Assembly (NCBI GenBank): GCA_964483115.1
Contig: CAYZZF010000002.1
Span: 5,493-69,492, forward strand
Length of the DNA: 64,000 bases
DNA from: an uncultured Gammaproteobacteria bacterium
GTDB lineage: Bacteria; Patescibacteriota; Microgenomatia; Levybacterales; UBA12049
Reading direction: 5' to 3'
Position numbers and translations under genes: made by a program
The notes under the pieces: model-generated
The model's database searches: none
What the model was told of the DNA's origin: nothing
What the model saw: only the letters and a program-made list of their open reading frames with translations
Shown: positions 616 through 61,396 of the stretch, piece after piece
How the letters are laid out: each line of letters opens with the position of its first letter
Numbering within the stretch: position 1 is the first letter of the stretch

Positions 616-1314
616 ATGAAAAAACTTTTTATTATAGCCAATTGGAAATCAAATAAGACAATTATTGAAGCTGAAAAATGGCTTCATGATTTCCATGATA
701 AGTTTGTTTCTGAAAATATCGACCTTTCCAACAAAGAAATAATTATCTGCCCTTCATTTACTCTTTTTGAACGTGCACATTATTATTCAAAAAATTTAAA
801 TCTCCCCATAAAATTTGGCGCGCAAAATATCTCGCCCTACGATGTCGGGGCGTACACCGGGGAGGTTAACGGAAAACAGATTAAAGAGGTCGCAGACTAT
901 GTAATAATAGGCCATTCAGAGAGAAGAGATAATTTTTTAGAGAATGATGAGATGATAACAAAAAAGCTAGATATGACAAACAGATACAATCTTTGCCCAA
1001 TATTGTGCATATCGGAGCCAGCTCAAATCTCAAAAATCAGATCTCAAAGTCAAAATTTAAAACTACAAAATTTAATAATTGCCTACGAACCGTTATTCGC
1101 TATCGGATCGGGAACGCCGGATACGCCAGAGAATGCAGAAAAGATTATGCAGAATATTAAAAAAGAATTAAGAGATGTCCCTGTTTTGTATGGAGGAAGC
1201 GTAACTTCTGAGAATATTAAGGGTTTTACAAAAATGTCAAACATAGACGGAACTTTAGTAGGTGGTGCAAGCCTTGATCCTCAAGAATTTCTTAAAATAA
1301 TTAAAAATGCGTAA
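616..1314 (+). CDS. tpiA: triosephosphate isomerase
   Basis: IANWKSNKT and IGHSERR motifs with a C-terminal GGAS block; length 232 aa. Confidence 0.9.
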   Translation: MKKLFIIANWKSNKTIIEAEKWLHDFHDKFVSENIDLSNKEIIICPSFTLFERAHYYSKNLNLPIKFGAQNISPYDVGAYTGEVNGKQIKEVADYVIIGHSERRDNFLENDEMITKKLDMTNRYNLCPILCISEPAQISKIRSQSQNLKLQNLIIAYEPLFAIGSGTPDTPENAEKIMQNIKKELRDVPVLYGGSVTSENIKGFTKMSNIDGTLVGGASLDPQEFLKIIKNA

Positions 1315-2416
1315 GAGAAAGAAATATAAAAAGATCTTTTTAATTGTAATCGTTCTTGTTGTTTTATTTTTTGCAGGAAAAGCAGCTTTAAATCTTACTA
1401 GAATAGCACCGTTTCTATTTCAGCTATTTTTTAATTATGATGTAAAACTTAAACAGAGCGATGACCATATAAATATTCTCCTTCTTGGGATAGGTGGAGG
1501 AACCCATCAAGGACCAAATTTAACAGATACTATAATCTTTGCAAGCCTTGATCCTGTTAAGAATAAAATTTCTTTAATTTCAATTCCCCGCGATCTATGG
1601 ATCCCAGATATTAATGGGAAAATAAACAGCGCTTATGCAATAGGTGAGGAGGAAAGAAATGGAGGAGGACTTGTGCTTGCCGAGGCAGTTGTTCAAAAAG
1701 TTCTTGGCCAGCCCGTTGATTATGGAGTACGAATAGATTTTAGCGGCTTTATAAAGGCAGTCGATGAAGTCGGAGGACTTGATATTAATGTTGACCGTGC
1801 TTTTGATGATTTTGAATATCCAATCGATGGTAAGGAAAATGATCCATGTGGTCGTACAGACGAAGAACTTAAGACTCTCGCAACTGCCTCATCTCAGCTT
1901 GAAGCATTCCCTTGTCGATATAAGTATATCCATTTTAATAAAGGGCTACAGCGTATGGACGGAAAAAGAGCTCTTGAGTTTGTAAGATCTCGTTATGCGC
2001 AAGGGCCGGAGGGGACTGATTTTGCAAGAAGTCAAAGACAGGAGAAAGTTATCAAAGCATTTAATGCTAAAGTACTTTCTCTTGAAACAATCTTTAATCC
2101 CGCAAGAATAATAAGCCTTTACAATATTGTCAAAACGAGTATAGACACTGATATAAAAGAGAATGAATTTGATGATTTTATAAGGCTTTATCAAAAATTA
2201 AAGACTGCAAAAATTACAAATGCGGTTTTAGATATGGGTGACGTAGAAACTAAAAGGCCTGGGCTTTTAGTAACCCCCAAACCTTTAGAAGAATATAATT
2301 ATCAATGGGTTTTGGCCCCTCGCATTGGAGATGGCAATTTTTCGGAGATTCAAAAATATGTTGATTGTGAGATAAAGACTGGGAATTGCAAAATTTCTAA
2401 AGAAGTGGGGAGGTAA
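1307..2416 (+). CDS. LytR-CpsA-Psr (LCP) family cell-envelope phosphotransferase
   Basis: N-terminal TM, then LLLGIGGGTHQGPNLTDTIIFASLDP...ISIPRDLWIP, the LCP core. The start overlaps the tpiA stop. Confidence 0.8.
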   Translation: MRKRKKYKKIFLIVIVLVVLFFAGKAALNLTRIAPFLFQLFFNYDVKLKQSDDHINILLLGIGGGTHQGPNLTDTIIFASLDPVKNKISLISIPRDLWIPDINGKINSAYAIGEEERNGGGLVLAEAVVQKVLGQPVDYGVRIDFSGFIKAVDEVGGLDINVDRAFDDFEYPIDGKENDPCGRTDEELKTLATASSQLEAFPCRYKYIHFNKGLQRMDGKRALEFVRSRYAQGPEGTDFARSQRQEKVIKAFNAKVLSLETIFNPARIISLYNIVKTSIDTDIKENEFDDFIRLYQKLKTAKITNAVLDMGDVETKRPGLLVTPKPLEEYNYQWVLAPRIGDGNFSEIQKYVDCEIKTGNCKISKEVGR

Positions 2417-4721
2417 TTTTATAAATCTTTGTTCTACCATTTTGGTAAATAATTTTTCCTAGTTTTTGAAATTTTTGCTCCGCAAGATTTGAGTATTTTT
2501 GATATTCTAAATCACCGATAAATATGTAGCTAATTTTATATTTACCTATTAATTCTTTAGTAATATTGATATCTGTTGTCTCGTACAAAATTTGTACTTC
2601 TGGAATTCGCGGAGCAGGAACATCATAGGTTCCACGCCATAGCCATTCATGCACTGTCCAACCTAAAACAGTTGGTAATCCTGTATTGGCGGATACTCTA
2701 GCAAAATCCGTATAAGAGTCTCCTTGCGCCTCTAGAATTACAGGTTGTCCTTTTATATTTTTATTAATCCACAAAATCGCTTCGTAATCAGTAGGGTAAA
2801 GATTTTTAAGATAAGCTGTCCCATCAAGCCCATAATTTATCTTAAAATTATTATAATAAGAATTTATGGCAAAGTAGGGATAAATTGCAACTAAAATAAA
2901 AAATAAAATAGAAAAAATAAAAAATACAAAGTAAAAATTAAAAATATTTAATATTTTATATTTAATATTTAATATCAATCGAATAATAATGTAGCCTGAA
3001 GAAATTGAAAGCATAATAAAAGATTGATAGACTAGCTTAAACATGGTGTTCGCTCGATAGTAAGTTGTGTAAATGTCCTTAATATAAATAAATTCGGGAA
3101 TGATAATAAGAATTGTCGATAGTATTATAAGAAGAAGAACGAAAATATCCGAAGCGGCAAGCGTATATCGTATAGCGTTTAGTTTTTTGAAAACGAAAAT
3201 AAGAAAGGAAATAACCCAAAAATAGAAGAAGCCGTAAAGTATTAAGAGCTGCCAGATTGGTGATCTTTGACAGGTGTTTGGTTCAAAAAGAAATGGACCA
3301 ATTTTACCTCTGTCAATTAGGAATTGGGGTGGACATATGATACCAATTCCTGAAACAAAAGGTTTGAAATAGTGATTAAATGGGAAAGAAAAAAGGATGA
3401 AGAAAATGCCGATAAAAATAAGATTTAAAAACCATTTTGAAATTGGAATCTTTTTTTGAAACACAAAAAACAAAAAAACAAGAGCAATTAACAGAAAATA
3501 AATAATTCCGTCCCAAGCGTTTGTCATATACATTATTGCTAGCAAAAATGCTAGCAAAATCTCAAATCTCAAGTCGCAAATCGCAAAATTGTGATAGTTA
3601 AAATTTTTGAATTTTGAATTATAATTTTGATTTTTGATTTTTGATTTTTTATCTAACCGGTTATTACTAAATGTATTCATGAATATAGAAAAAAGTAACG
3701 CTATAGCAAAGAGAACGAGGGGTATATCTAGTACGTGTCCATGAAGATCAGAAACTACAAATGAGTAGATTGGAAATTCATGGATAGTATGATAGATAAA
3801 GCGGGTTGCATTTGGATACCAGTATGAGTTTGGAAAGGTAAAAGGAGAGAAGGATAATTGCCAAAATGGAACCGGATTGTCATTTTGGTAAGGTTTGAAA
3901 AAAGCATAGATTGTTTGTAAGTTTCCCGCAAAAGAAATAAGAAAAGCAGTCAAAAAACCGGCAATTATCGCTCGGGGTCCTGCCCCGAATTTACCTCCCG
4001 CCAGTGCTCGTTCAGATTTTTCACTGCGCGCTGTCGGGAGCCCGTCCAGTCGTGTCGCCCCTCGCATCAAAAAATATATTAGGTTTGCTCCGATTGAAAA
4101 AGAGGCAGTAAAAGTAAAAGCAAAGATAGTTGCAAGCATCAGATTAAAGGTTATATTGGAAGGAATACCAGATAATTTGGTTAAAACCGCAGTTGCTAGG
4201 TGGCCAAAATAATAATAGTTGATCGAGAAGGGCGTAAACCACATGTCCTTTGGAGGAAAATATTCGGATCTAAGAATTGAATTAACAAAACCGAAATCCA
4301 TATACTTCTCAAGTCCATGAATATCAGGTGCGTATGAGCGAACATAAGACCAAAAGAAAAGTGCGATTATAAATAGTATTTCCTCAAAAACAAAGATTAC
4401 CCATTTCTCTTTTAAGATTATTAAAAAAGCACTTTTTATTCTTAAATAGCCATTATCTATTTTAAAAACCAAAGAAAGATTAAATATCAAAAGTAAAGTC
4501 AAGATAAATGCCAATGTTAATCCAGTAAAAGGAGCTATATAGGTAACACCTAAAATAAAAGCTACATAAGAAATAATCACAGTACCAATTATTTTTGAAA
4601 AAATGTACCCTTTGTCAAAGAAGTTCTTAAAAATTCTTGTGGCTGACGGTAGAAAGATAAAACCAATTACAAAAATCACAAGCCACCATTTTAAAATAAA
4701 TATAAAATCAAAAAATTCCAT
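2397..4721 (-). CDS. large polytopic membrane protein (DUF2298 / YYY-type) with C-terminal extracytoplasmic domain
   Basis: More than 12 predicted TM helices. The C-terminal block is YPTDYEAILWINKNIKGQPVILEAQGDSYTDFARVSANTGLPTVLGWTVHEWLWRG. It carries an in-frame low-complexity insertion derived from the dispersed repeat at 3556-3655. Confidence 0.6.
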   Translation of the reverse strand: MEFFDFIFILKWWLVIFVIGFIFLPSATRIFKNFFDKGYIFSKIIGTVIISYVAFILGVTYIAPFTGLTLAFILTLLLIFNLSLVFKIDNGYLRIKSAFLIILKEKWVIFVFEEILFIIALFFWSYVRSYAPDIHGLEKYMDFGFVNSILRSEYFPPKDMWFTPFSINYYYFGHLATAVLTKLSGIPSNITFNLMLATIFAFTFTASFSIGANLIYFLMRGATRLDGLPTARSEKSERALAGGKFGAGPRAIIAGFLTAFLISFAGNLQTIYAFFKPYQNDNPVPFWQLSFSPFTFPNSYWYPNATRFIYHTIHEFPIYSFVVSDLHGHVLDIPLVLFAIALLFSIFMNTFSNNRLDKKSKIKNQNYNSKFKNFNYHNFAICDLRFEILLAFLLAIMYMTNAWDGIIYFLLIALVFLFFVFQKKIPISKWFLNLIFIGIFFILFSFPFNHYFKPFVSGIGIICPPQFLIDRGKIGPFLFEPNTCQRSPIWQLLILYGFFYFWVISFLIFVFKKLNAIRYTLAASDIFVLLLIILSTILIIIPEFIYIKDIYTTYYRANTMFKLVYQSFIMLSISSGYIIIRLILNIKYKILNIFNFYFVFFIFSILFFILVAIYPYFAINSYYNNFKINYGLDGTAYLKNLYPTDYEAILWINKNIKGQPVILEAQGDSYTDFARVSANTGLPTVLGWTVHEWLWRGTYDVPAPRIPEVQILYETTDINITKELIGKYKISYIFIGDLEYQKYSNLAEQKFQKLGKIIYQNGRTKIYKITSPLL
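3556..3655. repeat. intragenic in-frame copy of dispersed AT-rich repeat (TTTTGAA-type, plus GCAAATCGCAAAATTGTGAT core-like segment)
   Basis: The segment aatttttgaattttgaattataattttga is near-identical to the reverse complement of the dnaK-downstream intergenic copy (33965-33995). It encodes a K/N/F-rich stretch with no stop codon. Confidence 0.6.
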
Positions 4722-5274
4722 TTTTTAAATGTTTTTCTGCAAATTCTCTAAGATCTATTATGGGCACTAAATTTTTTGGAAGACGGACTTTTTTTGGAAA
4801 TGTTCCTTTCAGCCAAAAAAAATCTATTCTGGGATTTCTTTTCGACAAATATAAAAGAAGATCAAGATCGTCATCAACAAATTTTGTTAATTTTAATTTT
4901 CTTATCATTTTATCTTTTAATAAATGAGGTTGCTCATTTTCGAAATTAAAATACATTTTTTTGAAAAACTTTTTTAATTTATGTCTTTTTAGCCAAATTT
5001 CTGTTTTATTTTTTAAAAAACCAAATCTTCCAGAAATAAGAAAAATATCCAATTCATTAATTTTTGTAATTTCAGAAAGCACTTCAATGTTTTTCTTAAT
5101 TGGGGATCTTAGCATCCAATGATGTGATAAAATTCTTATTTTTTGCTCAAATTCACTTGGAAATCTGTAGACTAATTTATGATTCTTTTTTTTGTATAGC
5201 CTGTCAATAATTGAGCTTGGGATAAAAGGAGGATAATCTACAAAAACCTTATCAAAATCAAATCCTATCCTCAT
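4708..5274 (-). CDS. HAD-superfamily hydrolase-like protein (possible phosphatase/nucleotidase)
   Basis: N-terminal GFDFDKVF resembles HAD motif I (DxD). Length 188 aa. Overlaps its neighbours within an operon. Confidence 0.45.
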   Translation of the reverse strand: MRIGFDFDKVFVDYPPFIPSSIIDRLYKKKNHKLVYRFPSEFEQKIRILSHHWMLRSPIKKNIEVLSEITKINELDIFLISGRFGFLKNKTEIWLKRHKLKKFFKKMYFNFENEQPHLLKDKMIRKLKLTKFVDDDLDLLLYLSKRNPRIDFFWLKGTFPKKVRLPKNLVPIIDLREFAEKHLKNGIF

Positions 5275-5277
5275 AAC

Positions 5278-6333
5278 TTAATATGAATTAAATAATTTAC
5301 CCCAATTTGTCTTCATAAAATTATCGATTCTTTTTCTGCCAATAAAATTATACCAGTAGCCATCATGATATAGATTGGAAGCCAAATATGACCATGGAGC
5401 AATAAAGGTTTGAAGCAATACTTTCTCAATATTTTCAGGAAGCTTATGATAAATAAATTTCTGGCCGCGTGAAGCGAAAGTATCGCTTGTTTTAAACCTC
5501 CATGAAGAAGGTAATTTTACATTAACATCAGGGGATAATGTCCCCAATTTTAATTTGTCTGCAAGCCTTAAATATTTTAATTTTTCAGGTTTAAAGCCCA
5601 TTATTTTTGCAACAACCGCATCTATGGCCACTAAATCGGATGAAGCAAAAAGATAATTTTTTTCTTCCCAATCCATTGCACGAGGACCTGAACCTTTTCC
5701 CACAATAGCTCCATCTGTCACACCTAAAATAGCAGGATGAATTTCTTTCTGGATTGTCAAAAGATCAACAATTGCCTCATGAATATATCTATGTGCAAAG
5801 TGTCTCACTTCTCCAAGCATTCCAAAATAATTCTTTATACAGCCGGTAGTGGTAGTGAATACGTGCATTTTGGCAGTGGCTAAATGGATTATGTTTTTAT
5901 TGAAAATTATTTCAGGAAGCAAAATTCCTTTCGGGAAAATTTTATCTAAAATTAGCATTTTATGCCTCGGTTTATAATAGATATACTTTTCATCAGTCAA
6001 ATAATGCATTTTCACTCCGTATTTTTTAAAAACCTTATCCCATTTATTATTTATTGTTCCCTGATAAACATTAGTGACTACAGTTCTATTTTCCAAAGGA
6101 ATTATTTTTTTAGGATTGAAGCCATCTTCAATCAAAGATTTTATAACACCCTCTAATTCCCATGGGGGAGTTGAACATGCGGGATAAAATTTAGTCCAAG
6201 ATAAATTAATTTTTAGAACCGTTTCTTTTTCTGGATTGAAATATCTTTTATATTGTGTTAATTCAAGCAGTTTTTTATAATCCTTCAAAACTGTTTCGGG
6301 TTTTGTCCTAACAAAAAATACTTTCGCCTTCAT
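5278..6333 (-). CDS. DUF362-domain protein
   Basis: Overall resemblance to the DUF362 family (about 350 aa, GVTDGAIVGKGSGP block). Function unknown. Confidence 0.45.
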   Translation of the reverse strand: MKAKVFFVRTKPETVLKDYKKLLELTQYKRYFNPEKETVLKINLSWTKFYPACSTPPWELEGVIKSLIEDGFNPKKIIPLENRTVVTNVYQGTINNKWDKVFKKYGVKMHYLTDEKYIYYKPRHKMLILDKIFPKGILLPEIIFNKNIIHLATAKMHVFTTTTGCIKNYFGMLGEVRHFAHRYIHEAIVDLLTIQKEIHPAILGVTDGAIVGKGSGPRAMDWEEKNYLFASSDLVAIDAVVAKIMGFKPEKLKYLRLADKLKLGTLSPDVNVKLPSSWRFKTSDTFASRGQKFIYHKLPENIEKVLLQTFIAPWSYLASNLYHDGYWYNFIGRKRIDNFMKTNWGKLFNSY

Positions 6334-6356
6334 AATCTATGTATTTTAACATAAAT

Positions 6357-8057
6357 TTACTTATCATTTTTCTTGAAAATCATAACCTTAGGATGGTCAT
6401 ATACGGTGAAAGATTCATCTGCGTTCTGATCATTTATGTCTATATTTGTAAAAGGAATTTTCGGGTATATGGCAAATTCGGCTACTTTTTCAAATCTCAA
6501 TTTTCCTGAAAAAAGATTTTTATAATATTCTGCTGTCTCTCTATAGCAAGGATTAGGAAATAATTTTTGACAATCAGTTAATTTTTGAAGCGGTACATAA
6601 AGTCTGTTGGAAGCAATAATAATATAATCTGTTTGTCTTAATTCAGTGTTTATTATAGACCATTTTTGAGGAGTGTCTTGGTTGTAAAGCGCAAGAGTTA
6701 AGATATTATAATTTTGTGCTCCAAAAAGAGGCAAACTATCATCCCAATGCTCTATTGCTATTGTTTTCCCTTGTGGTATATTTTCATTTATCCAATAGGA
6801 TGCCTGAACTCTAGTGTTTGGTTTTGTATAGATATTAAGGAAAGATAAAGTCCAAGTAAAAATACTACCAATAAATACCAATACTACCAATAAATACCAA
6901 TTACCAATCCTAATCTTTAGAAAAGTGGAAAGCTTATATATAAAAACTCCGGCAAAAACGGAAAGTAAAGGGTATAGAGGTAGCATATATCTCATAAAAC
7001 CTATTGCAAAACTTCCTGTTACTAAGAAATAAGTAAAGAAAAAGGCGATGATAATTATCAACTTATAATTGATTTTTTTAATTAATGAGACAGTAACATA
7101 GATTGTTCCTGAAAAAGCCAAAATTGCCAAAAAAGGTCCCTCTCCCCAAAGAAAAATATTTTTTAATTCATAAAAATAAGGAATTTTACCTACATATTGA
7201 AGCGTATAAGGAAACACAAAGGCATTGTGCGTCATTTGATATTGCTCAAGAGTCTGTTTCTGAAACTGCGGAAAATCTAGAATTGCATAGGGCTCAAGTA
7301 TTACAAAAGTTATAATAGTTCCAAAAATTATAATTAAACCTTCTGAGAAAAGACGTTTAAGAAAAATGGGTAGATGGGAAAACCAAATATGAGGCTTATG
7401 AGGTTGACGGAGGAAAATAAACAGAAAATCAATAGCAAGAGCAAGTCCAATAGAAATAATAAGAGGCAATGCGCTTACTTTAGTTGCTAAAGATAATCCA
7501 AAAAAAAGACCAATTAACAAAGCTTTCTTTTTGCTCGGCTTTTCATAAAAAAAAGATAGCATATATAAAGTTGCAAGAATAAAAAGAGAAAGCAAAGTAT
7601 CAACTGCATAAAAATGAGATGTTTGAAGGGGAAAAACACTTATTGCATAAAAAAAGGAAGAAAATAAGGCAACTTTTTGATTGAATAATTTTCTAGCAAG
7701 AGAAAAAATAACTAAAATAACTACTAAATCAGCAAAAACAGAAATAATCCGTCCAATAATATTAATTCCCGCATAGGTTGCAAAAGATGGATTTAAGAGA
7801 CCTGCAATACTTCCAAAAATTTTAAGAAGGTAAATAGGGAAACTTCCGTAAGCAAAAAAACGAGGATTCAGTGGGCTTTGAGGAGAAAAGAATTCGCTAG
7901 CATTTGAAGGGAAATGGAGCGGAAGAGCATACATTACTATTGCTCTTTCATCAGGATGAAGATGAAATCCTTGGTCCCAATTTAATCCATATATTCTTAA
8001 AAAGCTTGCGAGAATTAAAATCCCTAATAAAAGTAAATTTATACGTAAATTCTTCAT
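6357..8057 (-). CDS. GT-C fold membrane glycosyltransferase (PMT/ArnT-like, GT39/GT83)
   Basis: Polytopic protein. The first loop carries HLHPDER (the acidic DE motif), followed by FFAYGSFPIYLL. It is a paralog of the next gene. Confidence 0.7.
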   Translation of the reverse strand: MKNLRINLLLLGILILASFLRIYGLNWDQGFHLHPDERAIVMYALPLHFPSNASEFFSPQSPLNPRFFAYGSFPIYLLKIFGSIAGLLNPSFATYAGINIIGRIISVFADLVVILVIFSLARKLFNQKVALFSSFFYAISVFPLQTSHFYAVDTLLSLFILATLYMLSFFYEKPSKKKALLIGLFFGLSLATKVSALPLIISIGLALAIDFLFIFLRQPHKPHIWFSHLPIFLKRLFSEGLIIIFGTIITFVILEPYAILDFPQFQKQTLEQYQMTHNAFVFPYTLQYVGKIPYFYELKNIFLWGEGPFLAILAFSGTIYVTVSLIKKINYKLIIIIAFFFTYFLVTGSFAIGFMRYMLPLYPLLSVFAGVFIYKLSTFLKIRIGNWYLLVVLVFIGSIFTWTLSFLNIYTKPNTRVQASYWINENIPQGKTIAIEHWDDSLPLFGAQNYNILTLALYNQDTPQKWSIINTELRQTDYIIIASNRLYVPLQKLTDCQKLFPNPCYRETAEYYKNLFSGKLRFEKVAEFAIYPKIPFTNIDINDQNADESFTVYDHPKVMIFKKNDK

Positions 8058-9679
8058 AATTTTTTTTCAAAGATAAATAGTGTTGGTCTATCAAAAACAC
8101 TAGCGGTTTCTTCAAAACTAAATACCGGGTTTCCAAGATAAGTTATTTTGCAAAAAATGTCACAAGGGGTTTCATAAATTTCTATAAATCCCAATTTTTG
8201 ATTAAAAATATTATTGTAAAATTTATACCCTTTAGGAAATTGTTTTGGATTACTAAGTCTTGTATCTATAATTCTTTGGCTTGGGAAAACTGCAACTTCG
8301 TTTGTTTTTAATAGAAAAGAGAGTTCTAAGTCTTTATTTTCCATAGTATCAAGATCATAAAAATTAAAAAGAGTGATTATTGGGAAATTTCGATTAAAAG
8401 GAAGAATTCCTAGATCATAAACTTCGCTTAAAATTTTTGCATCATTTTTAACATGCTTTCTTGCCCAAGATGCAGCATCTACACGGGTATCAATTTTAGC
8501 ATAAACAGTTATAAAATAAGAAATTGCAAACACAAAATTTATTATTGTGATAAAAATTAGAAGATAATTTATAAGATTTTTTTTCAGAAAAGCGCGAAAA
8601 TCTGAGATGGCAAAGCCAATAATTAAAAATATAAAAGGCAGAGTTGGTAACACATAACGAGTCCATTTAGCAAAGAAGAAAGCTTGAGATAAAAATATTA
8701 AAAGGAAAGCTATGAGAAGTAAGAAAATATAATAGTTTTTATTTTTTATAAATATATAAATTAAATAAATAAGACAGACAACAAAAATAATTGTTGTAGA
8801 AGGATTTAGAAGAAAAGGATATATTTTGAGAAATTGATAAGCAATTGGAACAGTACCAAAAAACTCTTGCGTATAAAAAACAGGGAGTGTCCCAAGAGCA
8901 ACAGATGATTCATAGTTCATGCTAAAGAGAAAAGATTTGAAATCAAAAACAGAAAATGGGGAAAATATAAAAAAGGTTATAGCAGAAATAGTAAGAACTG
9001 AAAATAATTTCAAAAAGATCTTTTTATATTTTTTCTTTTCAATTCTTGCATTTAGAAAAATTGAGATTAATGGTATAGGAAAGAAAACAAGATTCGAAAT
9101 CTTTGTCGCTGCAAGAAAACCTAAAATCACACCTGATAGGATAATGTTTTTAAGTGTCATTTTTCTATAAATTTTTACGCTTATGAAAAATAATAAAGAC
9201 GCAAAAAAAGCACTTACCGTTTCGAATGTGCCGAAATGTGCAAATTGAATAAAACCTACACTTAAAATTGAAAATATCGAAGTAGTAATAGCTGCGGTTT
9301 TATCTTTTATTTCTTTAGCAATGAAATATAAAACGGGAATAAGAAGGGTGCTTAACAATGCAGACATAAAGCGGGAAATTAAAATGGCATTCTCAAAAGA
9401 AACTTGGGACATGGAATCAGAAATTTTAGTTTGGAAAATCACATTTTTTACAATTCCGGCAAAGAATATTAAATAAATAGGGAAACTTCCGTAAGCAAAA
9501 AAATGAGGATTCATTTGAGTTGGAAAATTAAGCTGGGAAACAGCGGCGGCAATGTTCCTTTCATCGGGATTAAAATAAAAAGGAGCGCCCCAGTCAAGAT
9601 TATAAAATCTTAAAAAAGCTCCGAAAGCCATTAAAATAAACAAGAATAACAACTCTTTGTTATTTAATATTTTTTTCAT
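8054..9679 (-). CDS. GT-C fold membrane glycosyltransferase (PMT/ArnT-like), tandem paralog
   Basis: FYNLDWGAPFYFNPDERNIA...HFFAYGSFPIYLIFF has the same architecture as 6357-8057. Confidence 0.7.
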   Translation of the reverse strand: MKKILNNKELLFLFILMAFGAFLRFYNLDWGAPFYFNPDERNIAAAVSQLNFPTQMNPHFFAYGSFPIYLIFFAGIVKNVIFQTKISDSMSQVSFENAILISRFMSALLSTLLIPVLYFIAKEIKDKTAAITTSIFSILSVGFIQFAHFGTFETVSAFFASLLFFISVKIYRKMTLKNIILSGVILGFLAATKISNLVFFPIPLISIFLNARIEKKKYKKIFLKLFSVLTISAITFFIFSPFSVFDFKSFLFSMNYESSVALGTLPVFYTQEFFGTVPIAYQFLKIYPFLLNPSTTIIFVVCLIYLIYIFIKNKNYYIFLLLIAFLLIFLSQAFFFAKWTRYVLPTLPFIFLIIGFAISDFRAFLKKNLINYLLIFITIINFVFAISYFITVYAKIDTRVDAASWARKHVKNDAKILSEVYDLGILPFNRNFPIITLFNFYDLDTMENKDLELSFLLKTNEVAVFPSQRIIDTRLSNPKQFPKGYKFYNNIFNQKLGFIEIYETPCDIFCKITYLGNPVFSFEETASVFDRPTLFIFEKKL

Positions 9680-9683
9680 TTAA

Positions 9684-10958
9684 TTAAATTACAATTTTCG
9701 CCACTTTTTGTCCAAGCTCCACCGCATAATTAGTACCCCTATCCCACGGATAAATTTGGTCTATATTGGCAAGATAAACGTTTTTGATAGGCGTTTTGAA
9801 AGGAGGTATTATTTTTCCATACCCAACCTCCATAACAGGCTGGGCAAAAGGAGCTTTAAAAACCTCATAGCTTATAACATATTGCTTATAGTTTGGATTT
9901 ATTTTCTTAAGAAACGGATCATAAATTTTTAGAAGTTCATCTGCTGCCATTTGCATATAAGGATGATCGAAAGGAAGATAATTGCCTATGTACACTATGT
10001 GTTCATTATTATAATATTTTTTGTCCATAAAATTTGTATGTTCAACCACAGCCATTAAAGGATTTTTTCTTTCGCAAATATTTAACCAGTATGTTCCATC
10101 AATAAGGAATTGTTTTTTAAGCCTCAAAATAAGATTGATCGCTCCTAAACTTTTAAGGCTTGCAAGTTTACTCTTGTAATCTAAAGGGAGTTCGGGGACA
10201 ATTTTTAAAAATAGAAAAGACGGCAAAGTAACAATTAACGAATCAAATTCATTTTTTTCAATTTTTGAATTTTGAGCTCCAATTTTAATTTTTGACTTTT
10301 GAAATTTGATTTTTGAAACCTCAGTATTATAGTAAAATTTTCCGCCTTTTTCTTGAATTTTTTCTTCAAGAGCTTCAGAGAATTCTAAAAACCCTCCTTG
10401 TGGATAAACAAGGCTTGGAGTTCTTTTTTTAATTCTTGCCCAAAACCATGCAAGAGAAATATCTTTTGCGAGATCACCAAATTTTCCTTTAAGAAGCGGA
10501 CTCCAAACCATTTCATAACCCTTTTTGCCCATAATTTTTAAAAGAATTTCGTTTGCTTTATATTTATCAAAGATTTTTAAAAAAGGGCTGAACTTTAAAA
10601 AACCAAGAGCCAATCCCATTCTAATTTTCTCAATAAAATTAAGGAGAGGGAAATTAATTAGAGTAAATGGAGAATCAAGTTGGTAAACTCCGCCCTTTAT
10701 AAAAGTTGAGGTTTTAGGTCTTTTGACAATAACTGGATAATTTATTTCTCTTGCTAAATCTAAAACTGTTTTATCATTTGTAAACCAATGATGGTAATGT
10801 TCTTCCACTGTCCATTTCCACCCCTTTTTTTTATAACCAATTGCAAGGCCTCCTGGTTTTGCCCCTTTTTCAAAAACTGCTACTTCATGACCATTTTTTA
10901 CCAATTCAAAAGCAGCGGACAGTCCGGTAAAGCCCGCACCAATAATTGCTATCTTCAT
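9684..10958 (-). CDS. Rossmann-type FAD/NAD(P)-binding oxidoreductase (amine-oxidase / UDP-galactopyranose-mutase-like fold)
   Basis: MKIAIIGAGFTGLSAAFEL...VFEKGAKPGGLA is a GxGxxG dinucleotide fold. Contains an in-frame repeat insertion at 10255-10318. Confidence 0.7.
   Translation of the reverse strand: MKIAIIGAGFTGLSAAFELVKNGHEVAVFEKGAKPGGLAIGYKKKGWKWTVEEHYHHWFTNDKTVLDLAREINYPVIVKRPKTSTFIKGGVYQLDSPFTLINFPLLNFIEKIRMGLALGFLKFSPFLKIFDKYKANEILLKIMGKKGYEMVWSPLLKGKFGDLAKDISLAWFWARIKKRTPSLVYPQGGFLEFSEALEEKIQEKGGKFYYNTEVSKIKFQKSKIKIGAQNSKIEKNEFDSLIVTLPSFLFLKIVPELPLDYKSKLASLKSLGAINLILRLKKQFLIDGTYWLNICERKNPLMAVVEHTNFMDKKYYNNEHIVYIGNYLPFDHPYMQMAADELLKIYDPFLKKINPNYKQYVISYEVFKAPFAQPVMEVGYGKIIPPFKTPIKNVYLANIDQIYPWDRGTNYAVELGQKVAKIVI
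10255..10318. repeat. intragenic in-frame copy of dispersed repeat
   Basis: aattttgacttttgaaatttga is a 22-bp exact match to the reverse complement of the groEL-downstream copy (20931-20965). Confidence 0.6.
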
Positions 10959-12286
10959 AAGGAAAGACTTTGGGCGAGAAGAAAAAGGAATACTCCAGTA
11001 ACAGTAATTGCCAGACCAATTATTCCAAAATTTACAATATTAGGATCGCCGGGTGCTGGTAGGGTGGGGGTTGGAGTCGCAGAACTTACCGGCGGTTCGG
11101 TAGGCATAATTGTTGGCGTAGGAGTTGCGGTTGGAGTTTGGGTTGGTGATGGAGAAAAAGCCGGCGTTGCGGAAGGAGTTGCCGATTGTGCAACTTGAGT
11201 TCCTGATGCATAGACAACAAAAGATTGAATTATTGTCCGTAGAATTCCTAAAGCATCTCTTGTAGTAATAGATATTGTGTGTGTGCCAGGCGAAAGGGGA
11301 GTATCAGGACGATAACTCCAGTTTCCAAAACCATCCGTTTCTACTTGAGCTTGTATATTTTCGGTGGAGCGAATAGTTATTGAAACAGTACTGTTTGGAA
11401 GAGCAACACCTTCGAATTTTGGTTGTTGATCGGAAAACCCTTGGTCCTTTTTAGGTATTAAAATTTCAGGACTTTTTGATGTTGTTTTTGCTAAGACAGG
11501 CAGAGCAGAAAAAACAGTCGATGAAGATGGGGTAGCAGGAGGTGAAACTAATGTAAAATCATAATCGTAGGATAGAATTATCGTAGGTACTTCTGTTGAT
11601 GAATTCGACAGTTCAATATTTGATGATAAATCCGCAGAAACTATTAGCATTTTAATAATAGAGTTTTCTTTAAGAGTCACGTATGAAGAAAGGTCGCTTA
11701 CTCTAAGAAGGTTTAATGGGATTTCATAGCTTCCGTCTTCTTTTGTTAGAGTTGATATTGCCTGCGAGTTACCTGCTGTTAGATAAACTATGGCTTCTTT
11801 TGGCGGGTCGCCATCGGGTAATTGAACCTTGCCCGAAACCTTTTTTTGCAAAGAACTCAAGGATGCAATATTCGGTCCTGTTGTTATACTAAAGGCAGCT
11901 CCGTTTTGAAGAAATGTGTCTTGCCCTGAAGTGATTGAAAAATAATAAGAAGTATTTGGTGTTAAATTTTTTACACTAATGCTATGAACTGCATGAGGAG
12001 TAAGCGAGCTCTTTTGTTCTCTTTCGTCCAATGCTGTTTGCCCTAAATTTCTATCTTTATCAAAATTTATAGATCCTAGAACAGCTGCGTCTGTTAAAAA
12101 AGATACTGTAAATGATGTGTCGGAAACATTAGTTATTCTTATATTTTTTGGAGAATTTGAAGGCCCAGCAAATCCAGTAAAGATTACCCTTCTTTGGACA
12201 AGAAATGTTGTTGTGCCTATTCCAATTACTATTACCAATAACCCGATTAATGTTGGTATGCGCTTATTCCAAATGCTATTTTTCAT
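10955..12286 (-). CDS. cell-surface protein: N-terminal TM/signal anchor, beta-rich (Ig/FN3-like) domains, PT-rich linker, C-terminal PGD + TM anchor
   Basis: The C-terminus is ...SATPTPTLPAPGDPNIVNFGIIGLAITVTGVFLFLLAQSLSL. The PT-rich region is SPSPTQTPTATPTPT. Confidence 0.55.
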   Translation of the reverse strand: MKNSIWNKRIPTLIGLLVIVIGIGTTTFLVQRRVIFTGFAGPSNSPKNIRITNVSDTSFTVSFLTDAAVLGSINFDKDRNLGQTALDEREQKSSLTPHAVHSISVKNLTPNTSYYFSITSGQDTFLQNGAAFSITTGPNIASLSSLQKKVSGKVQLPDGDPPKEAIVYLTAGNSQAISTLTKEDGSYEIPLNLLRVSDLSSYVTLKENSIIKMLIVSADLSSNIELSNSSTEVPTIILSYDYDFTLVSPPATPSSSTVFSALPVLAKTTSKSPEILIPKKDQGFSDQQPKFEGVALPNSTVSITIRSTENIQAQVETDGFGNWSYRPDTPLSPGTHTISITTRDALGILRTIIQSFVVYASGTQVAQSATPSATPAFSPSPTQTPTATPTPTIMPTEPPVSSATPTPTLPAPGDPNIVNFGIIGLAITVTGVFLFLLAQSLSL

Positions 12287-12567
12287 GGGGCAGTTCCTCC
12301 TTGAAGTTGTTGCTGAGCCGGTGTTGTTGCTGTCTCTTCTGGGGTAGGAATTACGTTCCCCATCTCATAGATTGGATATATTACCTCTCTGTTTTTAAGA
12401 TTCTCAATAGTTTTGGCATCAAAATCAGGATTTATGGGAGAAATCTGAATACTTAAGGGTGTCGATATAGTACTAACAACCAAATTGTCATATATACTAA
12501 AAATAATCCATGCGATTATTATGATAAAAGTAGATATTAGTAAAAAAAGAATATCTCTCTGTTTCAT
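12283..12567 (-). CDS. small bitopic membrane protein (pilus-operon associated)
   Basis: N-terminal TM (ILFLLISTFIIIIAWIIFSIY). Translationally coupled to pilO on one side and the surface-protein gene on the other. Confidence 0.4.
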   Translation of the reverse strand: MKQRDILFLLISTFIIIIAWIIFSIYDNLVVSTISTPLSIQISPINPDFDAKTIENLKNREVIYPIYEMGNVIPTPEETATTPAQQQLQGGTAP

Positions 12568-12570
12568 TTT

Positions 12571-13224
12571 TTATTTTTTAAAATAAGCCTTTCCTAAAAT
12601 ATTAAATTGCAGAAGCCCCTGTTCTGTTTCGCTGCCCTTTTTATTTATAGAGAGCGTATCTATAGAAAGCACCCTTTGCATTTTAGTTAGGGATGATAAA
12701 AATTTTGTTATATCCTCATAGGACCCTTGCCCAGAAATAGAAAAGGAGAACGAGGAGTATTTGCTCTGATCAGTTGAAGGAGGCTCAGCCTCTACCTGAA
12801 AGCTTTGAAGATTGGTAAGTATGATATTGGAATTTTTTGCAATCGATTGTAATTGTGCCAAAAGAGTAGGAACCTCTGGATTTTTGGGAATACTAGCCAA
12901 AACAATTGGTAAGTCGCTTTGTATAAGATTATATTTTTTTTGGAGAACTGATAGATTATTAATCTTTTCTTCTAGTTTTTGATCAACATATTTACTGTCA
13001 GCCAGCTGCTTTTTAAGCTTTGCAATCGTTGATAAAGTTGGATTTATTGCAAATAAACCAAAAAAGGACAGAGCCACAAGAGATAAGACAATGCTTGTGA
13101 ATCTTTGTGTTTTTTCTTTCTTAAAGTCAGGCAAGAGCTCAAAATATTTATTATTCTTGATATTTCTAAAAATATTGCCTGCTTTGTTTTGTTCTTTCAT
13201 AAAATAATCTTTATTCTTGCGCAA
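12571..13224 (-). CDS. pilO: type IV pilus assembly protein PilO-like
   Basis: Short cytoplasmic N-terminus, one TM, a coiled-coil, then a ferredoxin-like C-terminal domain; about 200 aa. Sits immediately downstream of the PilN-like gene. Confidence 0.5.
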   Translation of the reverse strand: MRKNKDYFMKEQNKAGNIFRNIKNNKYFELLPDFKKEKTQRFTSIVLSLVALSFFGLFAINPTLSTIAKLKKQLADSKYVDQKLEEKINNLSVLQKKYNLIQSDLPIVLASIPKNPEVPTLLAQLQSIAKNSNIILTNLQSFQVEAEPPSTDQSKYSSFSFSISGQGSYEDITKFLSSLTKMQRVLSIDTLSINKKGSETEQGLLQFNILGKAYFKK

Positions 13225-13750
13225 GTGTAGCTGTAATGCTCACGGTGATAGTTGTACTTGATAGCTTATTTTCTATTTTGTCTATACTTACACTTTTTAT
13301 ATTTTTTGAATTTCTTAAAGAACTAATAAAAACGCCAAGAGATGAGACTAATTGAAGATTTGCCTCTATGGTTAGACGATTTTCAGAAATAAGAAAATTA
13401 TTGAAGGTCATTCCTTGAGGAGCAAAACTAATGATCTCTTTTAAGATGTTTAATTTTTTCCCGCCCAAAGTGGAAAAATCAGATGTTAACTTAAGCCTAT
13501 CTTGTAAGTCTCTATAGGTATCTTCTCGATTTTTAAAATATTGTACAATTGTCTGCTCTTGTTTAATTTTTGAATGAAGATCAATAAGCTGTCTGTCTAA
13601 AGAGAATCTATATAAGAAAGCAGATAAGGCAATAAGCTCAATAATTATTACAACAAGCCGTCCTATTGTTAGTGCCCAATTTATAAATTTATCGAAGAAA
13701 TCTATACGTTCCTCTCCCAATAAATTTATAGATGGATGTCTTTTTACCAT
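13211..13750 (-). CDS. pilN: type IV pilus assembly protein PilN-like
   Basis: N-terminal SINLLGEE, the conserved PilN INLLP-type motif, followed by a TM and periplasmic domain. Confidence 0.55.
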   Translation of the reverse strand: MVKRHPSINLLGEERIDFFDKFINWALTIGRLVVIIIELIALSAFLYRFSLDRQLIDLHSKIKQEQTIVQYFKNREDTYRDLQDRLKLTSDFSTLGGKKLNILKEIISFAPQGMTFNNFLISENRLTIEANLQLVSSLGVFISSLRNSKNIKSVSIDKIENKLSSTTITVSITATLAQE

Positions 13751-13784: not shown

Positions 13785-14075
13785 TCAAAGAGAGGACGAG
13801 AAGGATTTTTTGCTTTGAGCAGATCTTTTCTTAACAATTTTTTTAACAATCATTTTTGCAAGTCTTGATTTTATTCTCACCGCTTTATTTTTATGAATAA
13901 CGTTCTTTTTAGCAGCTTTGTCTGCCATACTTAAAGCTTGTTGAACAGATTTTTTGGTTGGAGTTTTTATTGCCCTTTTGATAGCAGACTTTAAAAGATT
14001 TTTTAATTTTTTGTTTTCAGTCATTCTCTTTGCGTCTTTTCTTAATTTTTTCCGAGCTGATTTTATCACTGGCAT
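13785..14075 (-). CDS. rpsT: 30S ribosomal protein S20
   Basis: MPVIKSARKKLRKDAKR... is basic and 96 aa long, a typical S20. Confidence 0.8.
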   Translation of the reverse strand: MPVIKSARKKLRKDAKRMTENKKLKNLLKSAIKRAIKTPTKKSVQQALSMADKAAKKNVIHKNKAVRIKSRLAKMIVKKIVKKRSAQSKKSFSSSL

Positions 14076-14111: not shown

Positions 14112-15770
14112 ATGGCCAATAATTTTTTTAAAAAAGGTTTGAATCTTCTCCTTGCACGACAAACCAATATTTTATCTGCCGCTTTTATCATAATGATAAC
14201 GATTATCCTCTCGCAGATATTAGGGCTTGTTCGACAAAGACTTCTGGTCGCATTTTTCGGAGCCTCAGATACCTTAGGAGTTTATCTTGCGTCATCTCGT
14301 CTCCCTGATTTTCTATTTCAGCTTATTGTTGCCGGTGCACTTTCCTCTGCTTTTATTCCAGTCTTTTCTGATTATCTTGGGAAGCAGAAATATGAAGAGG
14401 CGTATAGAGTCGGCTCAACACTTCTTTACTTGGGGCTTATTTTGTTCTCTTTTTTTGCTGTTATCCTTTTTATCTTTGCAGGTACCTTCTCAAAACTTAT
14501 TGCCCCGGGCTTTTCACCCTCGCAAATTTTACTTATGGCAAAGCTTATGAGAATAATCACTTTTGGAGAATTATTATTTATTATCGGAAGTTTTTTTTCA
14601 GCTATTCTTCAGTCATATAACCATTTTTTTATTCCAGGGATTGCTGCGGCCCTTTATAATCTAGGGATAATTATAGCAATTATAACCCTTTATCCTATCT
14701 TTGGAATTTTTTCAGCAGTCTACGGAGTTATACTTGGCGCATTTATTTTTGTTATTATTCAGCTGCCTTTCATAAAAGATGTTAAATTTTCTTTCAAACC
14801 TTCATTCAACATCAAGGAAAGCGGGGTAATTCAGGTAGTAAAACTTATGTGGCCAAGAACCCTGTCGATAGCGATCTTTCAATTGGGGACTATAATAACT
14901 GTGACTTTAGTATCATTTCTCCCTTCGCCTGGAAGAAGCTATGTCATTTTCGATTATGCCCAAACCCTTGCTTCTGCGCCAGTTGTTCTTATTGGTCAGG
15001 CAATAGCTCAAGCCGCTTTTCCAGTTTTATCGCGCGAGAAAGACAGACTTGATGATTTTAAAGCAACCTTTATCACAAGTTTTAATCAAATGCTTTATCT
15101 AGTACTTCCTATTTCTGTTCTCTTTTTGGTTCTCCGTATCCCAATTGTCAGACTTGTTTTCGGTGCAGCAGCCTTTGACTGGCAAGCAACAGTTTCAACC
15201 GGAAGAACGCTTGCCCTGTTCAGCATCTCAATTTTTGCTCAGGCCCTTATCTATTTAGTTTCAAGGGGTTTTTACGCTCTTCATGATACCAAAATCCCGC
15301 TTATTGTAGGTAGTGCAACAACAATACTTATGTTAGGACTAGAAGCATTATTTATTTTTACATATCGTCTCGGAGTTGATAGCCTTGCAACTGCTTTTTC
15401 AATTGCAAGCATTGCAAATCTTGTAATTTCACTTATCCTTCTTGATTTTAAAATAGGCGGATTTAAGAAAACTACATTCCTTCTTTCAATTACAAAAATA
15501 TCTGTTGCAACTATCTTTACAGGTTTTGCTCTCTACATTCCTGTAAAACTTTTGGACCGTTTGGTCTTTGATACGACAAAAACCATTAATCTTCTGATTC
15601 TAACCGGAATCTCATCGTTTGTAGGGCTCTCGCTTTATCTTTTTTTAACCTGGCTCTTTGATGTAAAAGAAGCATCAACTTTTATTTTACTATTTAGGAA
15701 AATTGGCAACTGGAGAGAGATATTAAGTGGAAGTGAGGAGACAATCGATGCTACAAGAATAAATCCATAA
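14112..15770 (+). CDS. murJ: lipid II flippase MurJ (MviN)
   Basis: LLVAFFGASDTLGVYLASSRLPDFLFQLIVAGALSSAFIPVF is the MurJ N-terminal signature; 14 TM. Confidence 0.85.
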   Translation: MANNFFKKGLNLLLARQTNILSAAFIIMITIILSQILGLVRQRLLVAFFGASDTLGVYLASSRLPDFLFQLIVAGALSSAFIPVFSDYLGKQKYEEAYRVGSTLLYLGLILFSFFAVILFIFAGTFSKLIAPGFSPSQILLMAKLMRIITFGELLFIIGSFFSAILQSYNHFFIPGIAAALYNLGIIIAIITLYPIFGIFSAVYGVILGAFIFVIIQLPFIKDVKFSFKPSFNIKESGVIQVVKLMWPRTLSIAIFQLGTIITVTLVSFLPSPGRSYVIFDYAQTLASAPVVLIGQAIAQAAFPVLSREKDRLDDFKATFITSFNQMLYLVLPISVLFLVLRIPIVRLVFGAAAFDWQATVSTGRTLALFSISIFAQALIYLVSRGFYALHDTKIPLIVGSATTILMLGLEALFIFTYRLGVDSLATAFSIASIANLVISLILLDFKIGGFKKTTFLLSITKISVATIFTGFALYIPVKLLDRLVFDTTKTINLLILTGISSFVGLSLYLFLTWLFDVKEASTFILLFRKIGNWREILSGSEETIDATRINP

Positions 15771-23885: not shown

Positions 23886-23894
23886 GAGCCAATA

Positions 23895-40243: not shown

Positions 40244-40246
40244 TGT

Positions 40247-41845: not shown

Positions 41846-41883
41846 TAAATTGCAATTTAGACAAAAACCTCTTACACTAAAAA

Positions 41884-60667: not shown

Positions 60668-61396
60668 TTAAATCTTCTCTAATCTTGCTTTCATAATAAG
60701 TCTTTTCCAAGTCGTTCCAGGAGGAGTACAAGTAACAAGAGTTAGATAAGAATTACTATAGTCTTGAGAAAATATCGAGATATCATCTGGATTAACGACA
60801 TTTATATTAAAAATTCTATAAAGATAAATCACCCCATCTACATTAACATAAACTACATCACCTTCTTGTAAGTTATATAAAGTTGCAAAGATTGTTTTGT
60901 AGTCCTTTGGATTAAAAAGCTGAGGAAGCGTTGAATGCCCAAATATTACAGCATTACCTTTATCAGGCGGAATTGCAGTCCCCTGATAGTTTACCAGATG
61001 CCTAGCAAGATCGTTATCGGTTGTTGAGACAACCGCATCTTTTATATTAAGTTTTGGGATGGAGATACTATATGTTGGAATTTTGGGCTTTTTCCCTAAG
61101 GAGGGACGGTAGCTTGGGAACCAGTTCTGCGCATTAGTATAATCCACTCCTGTTATTGTATTTTGAGCCTGATAGATTAAACTGCTAATCTCAGAAGTTA
61201 CAACATTGGTTTTTGGTATTGAGGTTGTAAAATCTTTCATGGTTGTCTTCCCTGAAAAATATATTTGCCATGACAATATAGGATAAAAAATATAAAAGAC
61301 AATAGTAAGCCCAAAAAACAGAAAAAGAAGGCTTAGGATGCGAAAAAATTTTTTGCGACTTTTTGTGTTTCTCTTAAAGTAGTAATATTTACTCAT
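60668..61396 (-). CDS. sortase-family transpeptidase
   Basis: N-terminal TM; VIFGHS (catalytic His), LTLVTCTP (TLxTC catalytic Cys) and a downstream Arg. Confidence 0.75.
   Translation of the reverse strand: MSKYYYFKRNTKSRKKFFRILSLLFLFFGLTIVFYIFYPILSWQIYFSGKTTMKDFTTSIPKTNVVTSEISSLIYQAQNTITGVDYTNAQNWFPSYRPSLGKKPKIPTYSISIPKLNIKDAVVSTTDNDLARHLVNYQGTAIPPDKGNAVIFGHSTLPQLFNPKDYKTIFATLYNLQEGDVVYVNVDGVIYLYRIFNINVVNPDDISIFSQDYSNSYLTLVTCTPPGTTWKRLIMKARLEKI

Follow-up and report, generated by a model that had tools for sequence, protein, structure and literature searches.

The window analysed here is a 64,000-nucleotide (nt) stretch of contig CAYZZF010000002.1 (assembly GCA_964483115.1), in which a block of co-directional genes on the minus strand (2397–13750) joins type IV pilus alignment proteins and a secreted surface protein to a set of membrane glycosyltransferases and companion enzymes. 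The closest homologs of the focal proteins, at 60–67% identity, come from metagenome-assembled genomes (MAGs) of Candidatus Levybacteria and Patescibacteria, so the host is an uncultivated Levybacteria-like member of Microgenomates, part of the Candidate Phyla Radiation (CPR). The window has a G+C content of approximately 29–40%, and identical copies of the focal genes occur on two Logan assemblies (metagenome runs SRR5161805 and SRR5161795) and on an NCBI contig of 107 kb. Families were assigned by profile searches against Pfam and NCBIfam, with curated cut-offs where given. A preliminary description of this DNA had counted eleven genes in the block; ten minus-strand open reading frames (ORFs) were found, and an eleventh is reached only if rpsT (13785–14075, 34 nt upstream of pilN) is included. 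The order it gave, namely pilN, pilO, a small transmembrane (TM) protein, a surface protein, a flavoenzyme, two GT-C glycosyltransferases, a DUF362 protein, a protein resembling haloacid dehalogenase (HAD) hydrolases and a DUF2298 protein, is the order found, and the tight packing it described holds as well: ATGA-type overlaps are present, and the junctions from pilN downstream measure -14, +3, -4, -4, +4, -4, +23, +3 and -14 nt. With this gene order seen again in over 30 related genomes, chance is far from sufficient to account for the arrangement. The locus is real and conserved, and represents lipid-carrier-dependent extracytoplasmic glycosylation of the GT-C kind in CPR bacteria. Promoter and terminator scans showed no excess over shuffled sequence (60 versus 54.8 expected and 7 versus 7.8 expected, respectively), and an Rfam scan of positions 1–30000 and a tandem-repeat search returned nothing relevant.

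The block can be read as two modules, the first of which (13750–10955) would comprise PilN, PilO, the small TM protein and a sortase-type, C-terminally anchored immunoglobulin (Ig)-like protein with a stalk rich in proline and threonine (PT). The pilN gene (13211..13750) encodes a 179-amino-acid (aa) bitopic type IV pilus alignment protein with the N-terminus SINLL. The window copy matches PF05137 below the cut-off (E 1.5e-3, 19.0 bits, cut-off 22.8), while 24 of 31 orthologs match this family (best 5.9e-12) and share the N-terminus [ST]INLL. An INLL-type N-terminus is the PilM-binding motif of PilM–PilN complexes, and its conservation therefore leads one to expect a PilM elsewhere in the genome. 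PilO (12571..13224; 217 aa from a TTG start, or 209 aa from the ATG of the public gene call) is recognised directly (PF04350, E 2.9e-18; T2SSM_b, 6e-6), so that both pilus assignments of the preliminary description stand, that of PilN through its orthologs and the INLL motif. Its remark that pilM is not adjacent also proved right: the window contains no pilM, pilB, pilC or pilT, a six-frame search of it found no prepilin motif, and the position upstream of pilN in 33 related loci is taken by rpsT or a divergent gene, never by pilM. A PilN of INLL type followed by PilO thus resembles the PilM–PilN–PilO subcomplex of type IV pili but departs from it in the missing neighbour, and whereas pilP and pilQ follow pilO in diderm pil operons, the small TM protein and the Ig-like protein follow it here. 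PilN and PilO families are widespread in CPR (PMC6744442). The small TM protein, TM94 (12283..12567), is confirmed as a protein of 94 aa with one TM helix and a short tail rich in PT; it matches no Pfam or NCBIfam family, and its 31 family members in related loci always lie between pilO and the gene for the Ig-like protein.

The Ig-like protein, Ig443 (10955..12286), is a secreted protein of 443 aa with an N-terminal TM helix or signal, Ig-like domains (Pfam fn3/PurAcPhos_N, CarboxypepD_reg and Big_13), a PT-rich stalk, the motif LPAPGD and a C-terminal TM helix. The PT stretch and the surface location proposed for it were both confirmed, the stretch lying directly before the C-terminal helix and the protein being extracytoplasmic. 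In the whole family (37/37), an N-terminal TM helix or signal is combined with a PT-rich 40-aa window (S+T+P 0.47–0.82) just before a C-terminal hydrophobic helix. Many members carry LP(P/K/V)TG(S/N) before this helix and a basic tail after it, and four of nine ortholog tails tested pass the LPXTG_anchor model TIGR01167 (16.0–19.7 bits, cut-off 15.9), a model that the window tail (LPAPGD...AQSLSL, with no basic tail) fails. On the opposite strand, a 136-aa ORF at 10788–11198 (plus strand; GVGVAVGV...) owes its existence to the PT-coding repeat and is not a gene.

A sortase gene (60668..61396, minus strand; PF04203 1.6e-24) with the active-site motif TLVTC lies in the same window and would be the enzyme expected to process LPXTG-type tails; its start overlaps the end of the gene for a 742-aa protein with a weak Baseplate_J-like match (60668–63617, minus strand). 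Sortases are near-ubiquitous in Microgenomates (PMC6744442). Outside the operon, a PKD/cohesin surface protein (17607–18788, minus strand) also has a PT-rich stalk and ends in VPPGPGD and a TM tail, its orthologs carrying LPPTG-like motifs. Both PT-rich proteins of this organism thus end in a degenerate P-G-D motif without a basic tail, and this common motif suggests an altered sorting signal. Given the LPXTG signals of the orthologs, the sortase in the window and the same architecture in the unlinked PKD/cohesin family, the PT stretch is best regarded as a generic wall-spanning stalk of the lineage's sortase-type proteins. The linker had been likened to targets of actinobacterial Pmt, which are PT-rich; its composition agrees with this, but an ordinary stalk explains the stretch and the feature is not unique to Ig443.

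The second module (10958–2397) would carry out lipid-carrier-dependent glycosylation outside the membrane, by means of the flavoenzyme, a cassette of GT-Cs, a variable "slot" gene and the HAD-like gene, and DUF2298. The flavoenzyme (9684..10958), whose gene shares 4 nt with the end of Ig443 at its stop codon, is a cytoplasmic flavin adenine dinucleotide (FAD)-dependent oxidoreductase of the amine-oxidase/CrtI/PPOX superfamily (PRK07233; PF01593 7e-27, NF005560 1.4e-117), with more than 6900 homologs. Of the earlier assignment as a Glf-like FAD oxidoreductase, the FAD dependence stands and the Glf likeness does not: matches fall in the amine-oxidase/PPOX/CrtI families, no GLF Pfam match was found, and in a profile search of the Protein Data Bank (PDB) structures of Glf (UDP-galactopyranose mutase) align over residues 2–95 only, at E ~5e-4. 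When compared with DprE1, the enzyme is likewise of the amine-oxidase type (PF01593) and not of the vanillyl-alcohol oxidase (VAO) type marked by FAD_binding_4. The same family is found in Chloroflexi, in the order LPG_synthase_TM (flippase-like), flavoenzyme and UDP-glucose dehydrogenase: the flavoenzyme follows LPG_synthase_TM in nine loci (L048, L052, L062, L066, L070, L073, L074, L080 and L082), and the dehydrogenase lies downstream in seven of these, not in L080 or L082. This context points to a glycan-related role of the flavoenzyme outside CPR as well.

The two tandem GT-C genes encode GTC541 (8054..9679; 541 aa, PMT_2 1.5e-6), with NPDER in its first outside loop, and GTC566 (6357..8057; 566 aa, PMT_2 7.3e-16), with HPDER and a C-terminal alpha/beta domain containing invariant E436 and D439. 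The paralogs share 28% identity, and P35-D36-E37-R38, in the loop after the first TM helix, is invariant in 34 homologs including both, so the first-loop DE motif noted previously was well read. The family assignment is more uneven, since PMT_2 is matched by both paralogs whereas Pfam PMT (PF02366) is matched by GTC566 alone (2e-6, 28.0 bits, cut-off 22.7) and over profile positions 94–210 of 245 only, GTC541 having the generic PMT_2 match and none to PMT. No PMT_4TMC or MIR domain was matched in either protein in Pfam at E <= 0.01, and the C-terminal part of GTC566 forms an alpha/beta domain of its own. In an AlphaFold2 model (predicted local distance difference test, pLDDT, 84.9), GTC566 has the GT-C fold, and Foldseek ranks the oligosaccharyltransferases (OSTs) STT3/AglB/PglB first (1e-8 to 1e-5), followed by ALG9/12 (1e-6), ArnT (8e-5), Pmt4 (2e-4) and AftA/Emb (~1e-2). 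The fold as modelled is certain, and the subfamily within GT-C is not fixed by it. Searched with a GT-C profile, PDB sequences gave Pmt4 as the sole match, non-significant at E 0.08, and sequence searches against solved structures gave no match for GTC566, DUF2298, the HAD-like protein or DUF362. A placement in GT39, one of the families named in the preliminary description, cannot be made on these data, since OST, ALG and ArnT structures outrank Pmt4, which is approached in sequence only at that E value.

Between the GT-C pair and DUF2298 lie two further genes. The DUF362 protein (5278..6333; 351 aa, PF04015 1.5e-21) was correctly recognised from the start; it occupies the slot in this window only, no homolog being present at that position in the 80 related loci described below, and in 12 related intervals (e.g., L003, L005 and L013) the slot gene (family f13) is an NAD-dependent epimerase of the short-chain dehydrogenase/reductase (SDR) type; in other intervals it is sometimes a GT1 glycosyltransferase. 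HAD188 (4708..5274; 188 aa) is a HAD-like candidate sugar-phosphate phosphatase. Its orthologs share invariant D6-x-D8, K120 and D135 (a DxD...K...DDD pattern), which supports the proposed HAD hydrolase, but the window copy has no Pfam match of its own and weak Acid_phosphat_B or HAD_2 matches appear in 6 of 21 orthologs.

DUF2298 (2397..4721), or Chlor_Arch_YYY, is a 774-aa polytopic membrane protein whose identity is secure (PF10060 9e-97, 325.5 bits; TIGR03662 4e-147, 491.8 bits, cut-off 300), with an invariant motif N168-Y169-Y170-Y171-F172-G173-H174 (NYYYFGH). Its model (pLDDT 72.9) gives weak fold matches to PglB and AftA. A bridge to the GT-Cs is offered by f18, a membrane family of ~546 aa without a Pfam or NCBIfam match, which hhalign connects to DUF2298 at 99% and to PMT_2 GT-Cs at 94.5–95%; it is the gene after the flavoenzyme in nine loci (L008, L016, L035, L032, L036, L042, L050, L053 and L079) and stands in for the GT-C pair in some relatives. 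In addition, DUF2298 and GT-C profiles align directly (E 6e-4) from the last TM helices into the first part of the C-terminal domain, with the common motif WIN(E/K)NI..G..(I/V)x(I/L)E...DS. On the strength of this bridge and the direct profile match, DUF2298 is probably a divergent GT-C relative. Residues ~350–380 of the window protein form an N/K-rich low-complexity insert encoded by A/T-rich tandem-repeat DNA (3587–3649), which is missing from most orthologs and modelled with low confidence.

The neighbourhood supplies further glycan-related genes. A LytR-CpsA-Psr (LCP) glycopolymer ligase gene (1307..2416, plus strand; PF03816 7e-32, TIGR00350 above cut-off) is convergent with DUF2298, overlaps its 3' end by 20 nt and adjoins it in 23 loci, and a MurJ-type MOP flippase gene (14112..15770, plus strand; PF03023 4e-67; TIGR01695 261.8 bits, cut-off 235.6) diverges from rpsT-pilN on the other side. 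A second glycan locus (21881–27221, minus strand) encodes a UbiA-family protein of DPPR-synthase type (21881–22825; decaprenyl-phosphate phosphoribosyltransferase model NF008978, 209.6 bits, cut-off 207), a WecA-like GT4 (22809–23885; WecA 1e-27, below cut-off), a 117-aa multi-TM protein without a family match that is a candidate small flippase (23895–24248), a third PMT_2 GT-C of 496 aa (24232–25722) and a 500-aa protein without a family match. The WecA-like, small TM, third GT-C, LCP and MurJ genes all lie within 25 kb. Farther along the window (37688–44580, plus strand), two ClpB-like AAA+ genes stand on either side of a 532-aa ORF that matches no family.

The modular structure of the locus becomes clear from synteny, which was followed in 80 loci from GTDB species genomes, anchored on the flavoenzyme, using tblastn, clustering of all ORFs and family hidden Markov models. 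The conserved block begins with lepA and murJ pointing outwards, continues with rpsT, pilN, pilO, TM94, Ig443, the flavoenzyme, a variable interval and DUF2298 in one direction, and ends with LCP and TIM in the other. This order is found in approximately 35 Levybacteria-type loci, a Chisholmbacteria locus (flavoenzyme 41% identical) and two further MAGs, L039 and L063, labelled Microgenomates and Limnocylindrales, respectively. The run from PilN to the flavoenzyme is constant in Levybacteria-type genomes; because the block also holds obvious housekeeping genes, conserved adjacency is here weak evidence for joint function. Within the 28 complete intervals between flavoenzyme and DUF2298, the GT-C pair is present in 17 and HAD188 in all of these; HAD188 is also present in an eighteenth interval (L018), where one GT-C is intact and the other fragmented, and nine others hold a single f18 or GT-C-like gene. 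About one-third of complete loci are without the pair. It is missing in L006, L008, L009, L010, L016 and L035, and L012 and L026 have neither GT-C nor DUF2298 after the flavoenzyme; the Ig443 stalk in these loci is equally PT-rich. Some intervals carry extra GT1, GT2 or methyltransferase genes. By this comparison of gene content, the GT-C pair, the epimerase-slot gene and HAD188 appear as a swappable cassette, as is typical of a surface-glycan island that varies while its flanks are conserved. Counting up to four genes away from the flavoenzyme, a GT-C-like gene is present in 50 of 78 loci and Ig443 in 35 of 78. In Gottesmanbacteria-type loci, the order is flavoenzyme, DPPR-synthase-type UbiA and an orthologous GT-C pair, with no PilN, PilO or Ig443, L072 having HAD188 and DUF2298 besides; the UbiA ortholog sits directly between flavoenzyme and pair in L049, L054, L068 and L072 and one gene further in L058. 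The arrangement therefore proves conserved in relatives, but the GT-C cassette is separable from PilN, PilO and Ig443.

The reading that we tentatively put first, at somewhat short of even confidence, is that a polyprenyl-phosphate-sugar pathway, probably of a DPPR-derived pentofuranose, feeds GT-Cs engaged in building or decorating an envelope glycan, while PilN, PilO and Ig443 stand beside it by inherited synteny. From the gene content we infer the donor chemistry, the acceptor and the roles of the flavoenzyme, HAD188 and DUF362 in the following manner. The DPPR-synthase-type UbiA would place phosphoribose on polyprenyl phosphate, the HAD-like protein would take off the 5-phosphate, and the flavoenzyme and/or the epimerase-slot enzyme would remodel the pentose or its carrier. 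After flipping, for which the 117-aa multi-TM protein and MurJ are candidates, the GT-Cs together with DUF2298 would move the sugar onto an envelope glycan at the outer face, a glycan whose synthesis the WecA-like enzyme may prime and whose ligation, as the last step, may fall to the flanking LCP.

Known systems offer close parallels to such a pathway. The components of three-component pentofuranose systems are a UbiA-like PPPRS that comes with a HAD phosphatase, then a flippase and a GT-C; SDR or DprE1/E2 epimerases are optional. Elaborate versions in Bacillus combine more than one GT-C with FAD oxidoreductases and NAD epimerases (PMC11127046, PMC11194591). An example of the three-component type is ORF15/ORF14/ORF12 of the Citrobacter youngae O-antigen (Kelly et al. 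2024, PMC11127046). The locus has in common with these a UbiA-like synthase that passes NF008978, a HAD candidate, outside-acting GT-Cs and, in relatives, an SDR in the slot. In contrast to them, synthase and HAD188 are separate genes 17 kb apart rather than fused, DUF2298 and an amine-oxidase-type flavoenzyme are added as constant parts, and DUF362 fills the slot. Moreover, family GT136 was set up because it resembled none of the families then existing, whereas the window GT-Cs match PMT_2, a distinction drawn by description, and unlike Citrobacter the host here is a monoderm-like CPR bacterium without O-antigen. The mycobacterial decaprenylphosphoryl-arabinose/arabinan pathway (Rv3806c, Rv3807c, DprE1/DprE2, Emb/Aft, WecA and Lcp1) also has a DPPR synthase, a phosphatase, a flavin oxidoreductase with an SDR (here in relatives), multiple GT-Cs, a WecA-type primer and an LCP ligase. 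It differs in its VAO-type DprE1, where the window has an amine-oxidase/CrtI-type enzyme; in an SDR replaced by DUF362 in the window; in a PAP2 phosphatase, which is HAD-like here; and in its Emb/Aft enzymes, which the window GT-Cs do not resemble by Pfam, AftA/Emb being distant fold matches only.

Several observations weigh against this reading. There is no homology between the flavoenzyme and DprE1, and amine-oxidase/CrtI-type families normally act on C-N or C-C bonds; HAD188 has no sequence similarity to any solved phosphatase in a PDB search; and we know of no glycan chemistry for any Levybacteria. The DPPR synthase lies 8 kb from the operon in this genome and is kept in L010, which is without the GT-C pair, and MurJ passes the lipid II flippase model and therefore need not serve the pathway. 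The nearest characterised relatives of GTC566 by sequence are protein O-mannosyltransferases (PMT 2e-6; Pmt4 at E 0.08). Gene order adds further points: the ATGA overlap of Ig443 and the flavoenzyme is conserved in approximately 35 loci, and the flavoenzyme stays beside Ig443 even without GT-C or DUF2298 (L012 and L026). A secreted PT-rich or Ig-like gene is again found just upstream of the flavoenzyme in other Microgenomates lineages (L032, L039, L042 and L079), as is, in Gottesmanbacteria-type loci (L047, L049, L068 and L072), a small, secreted Ig-like protein of ~140 aa with a weak Big_1 match (f37), whose gene overlaps that of the flavoenzyme by 4 nt in L068 and L072. These recurrent neighbours are hints of a link to protein, although outside Levybacteria PT-rich genes directly upstream of the flavoenzyme (3 of 26, compared with 19 of 499) are not significantly enriched (p = 0.089).

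Such a link is central to the alternative closest to the preliminary description, according to which the two GT-Cs, acting perhaps as a heterodimer like Pmt1/Pmt2 and with or without DUF2298, directly O-glycosylate Ser/Thr residues in the PT stalk of Ig443 and of similar sortase-type stalks at the Sec exit, using a polyprenyl-phosphate sugar. This is possible, though we consider it rather unlikely. It accords with the GT39 Pmt enzymes (yeast Pmt1/2/4 and actinobacterial Pmt) in the GT-C fold, the acidic DE loop motif, the PMT_2 matches and the PMT match of GTC566, the tandem paralogs that are always paired and recall the Pmt1–Pmt2 heterodimer, and the adjoining candidate substrate with a PT-rich stalk in all 37 orthologs, the kind of sequence that actinobacterial Pmt is established to modify; Pmt4 as sole PDB sequence match, the Ig443–flavoenzyme overlap, the persistence of that pair when the GT-Cs are gone and the secreted PT-rich or Ig-like genes before the flavoenzyme in other lineages can be added. 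However, GTC541 lacks a PMT match, PMT_4TMC and MIR domains are missing from both proteins, the structural ranking favours OST, ALG and ArnT over Pmt4, and no polyprenyl-phosphate-mannose synthase (GT2) is encoded in the locus. The stalk is kept where the pair is lost, the module occurs without Ig443 in Gottesmanbacteria-type loci, and the enrichment of PT-rich genes is not significant. The surrounding genes (GT-Cs, epimerase slot, phosphatase, DPPR synthase, WecA-like enzyme and LCP) exceed the needs of Pmt-type O-mannosylation and suggest a glycan of greater complexity.

The claim that the operon makes a glycan and attaches it to the co-encoded PT-rich protein is accordingly divided by these data. 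Its first half is sustained, in that a lipid-carrier-dependent extracytoplasmic glycosylation machinery with the GT-C fold is encoded and Ig443 is extracytoplasmic, whereas an operon dedicated to Ig443 rests on adjacency in a syntenic block and is not supported, given a GT-C pair that varies while the stalk persists and clusters of flavoenzyme, GT-C and DUF2298 without PilN, PilO or Ig443. Neither of the outcomes that the preliminary description named as refuting it came about: the GT-Cs have no clear place in a lipid- or peptidoglycan-modifying clade, and Ig443 is extracellular. The locus as a protein O-glycosylation operon is therefore still a plausible, open proposal. A broader reading, which we think improbable, would join the two ideas: Microgenomates, and partly Chloroflexi, would hold an undescribed lipid-linked pentofuranose system in which an amine-oxidase/CrtI-type flavoenzyme stands in for DprE1 or else modifies the polyprenyl carrier, a HAD protein encoded on its own takes the place of the PAP2 or fused phosphatase, and a PMT_2 GT-C heterodimer with DUF2298 O-glycosylates the PT stalks of sortase-anchored Ig-like proteins tied to PilN and PilO.

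Polymer and protein pathways would also be combined, and the two models reconciled, if the second module and the companion locus built a polyprenyl-diphosphate-linked glycan that LCP moved to Ig443 before sortase anchoring. There is precedent in Actinomyces oris, where LcpA glycosylates the sortase substrate GspA (PMC6381275), and the window resembles the GspA–LcpA–SrtA system in encoding an LCP, a sortase and a protein of LPXTG type (by its orthologs' signals) with glycan-synthesis genes, among them a nearby WecA-like primer enzyme; the LCP gene overlaps DUF2298 and is kept there in 23 loci. On the other hand, the adjacency of LCP and TIM belongs to the same inherited block, the sorting signal of the window Ig443 is degenerate (LPAPGD) and fails TIGR01167, and this LCP, bearing no sign of acting on protein, is set apart by nothing from ordinary peptidoglycan-directed ligases. 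We regard this route as a shade less probable still. Least supported, and very improbable, is pilin glycosylation in the manner of the Pseudomonas aeruginosa GT-C TfpW, which arabinofuranosylates type IV pilin from a DPPRS/DprE1/E2-derived donor (bioRxiv 10.1101/2020.04.19.049825; PMC11194591): the addition of DPPR-derived pentofuranose oligomers would explain the PilN/PilO neighbourhood and fits the DPPR-synthase equivalog in the window and the closeness of the GT-Cs to pilN and pilO, but no pilin gene or prepilin motif is present in the window or beside the module in the 80 loci, and in other lineages the module lies far from pil genes.

Whichever acceptor is involved, these results bear on the cell surface of a group about whose envelope glycans, to our knowledge, almost nothing is known. 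CPR bacteria (Patescibacteria) are mostly uncultivated episymbionts, and their surface, with its pili, wall-anchored proteins and glycans, is what contacts the host cell. Within the literature searched, nothing pertinent was found on CPR and PMT or on Patescibacteria and DPPR synthase or O-glycosylation, and no functional study of DUF2298/TIGR03662 was found either; the present analysis offers first functional hypotheses for these proteins and for the PRK07233 flavoenzymes, families with thousands of members each. It also flags a conserved family of sortase-type Ig-like proteins that always follows pilN-pilO in Levybacteria. If glycosylation of protein were to prove true, this would be, within the literature searched, the first proposal of an O-glycosylation system in CPR, and under the joint reading the pilus base would bear a surface coat of glycoprotein specific to CPR. 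The locus can be taken as a parts list for a CPR envelope glycan, comprising a DPPR synthase, a HAD-like phosphatase, a flavoenzyme, a GT-C cassette, DUF2298 and LCP, and the variation of its cassette between close relatives is as expected for a surface structure under selection.

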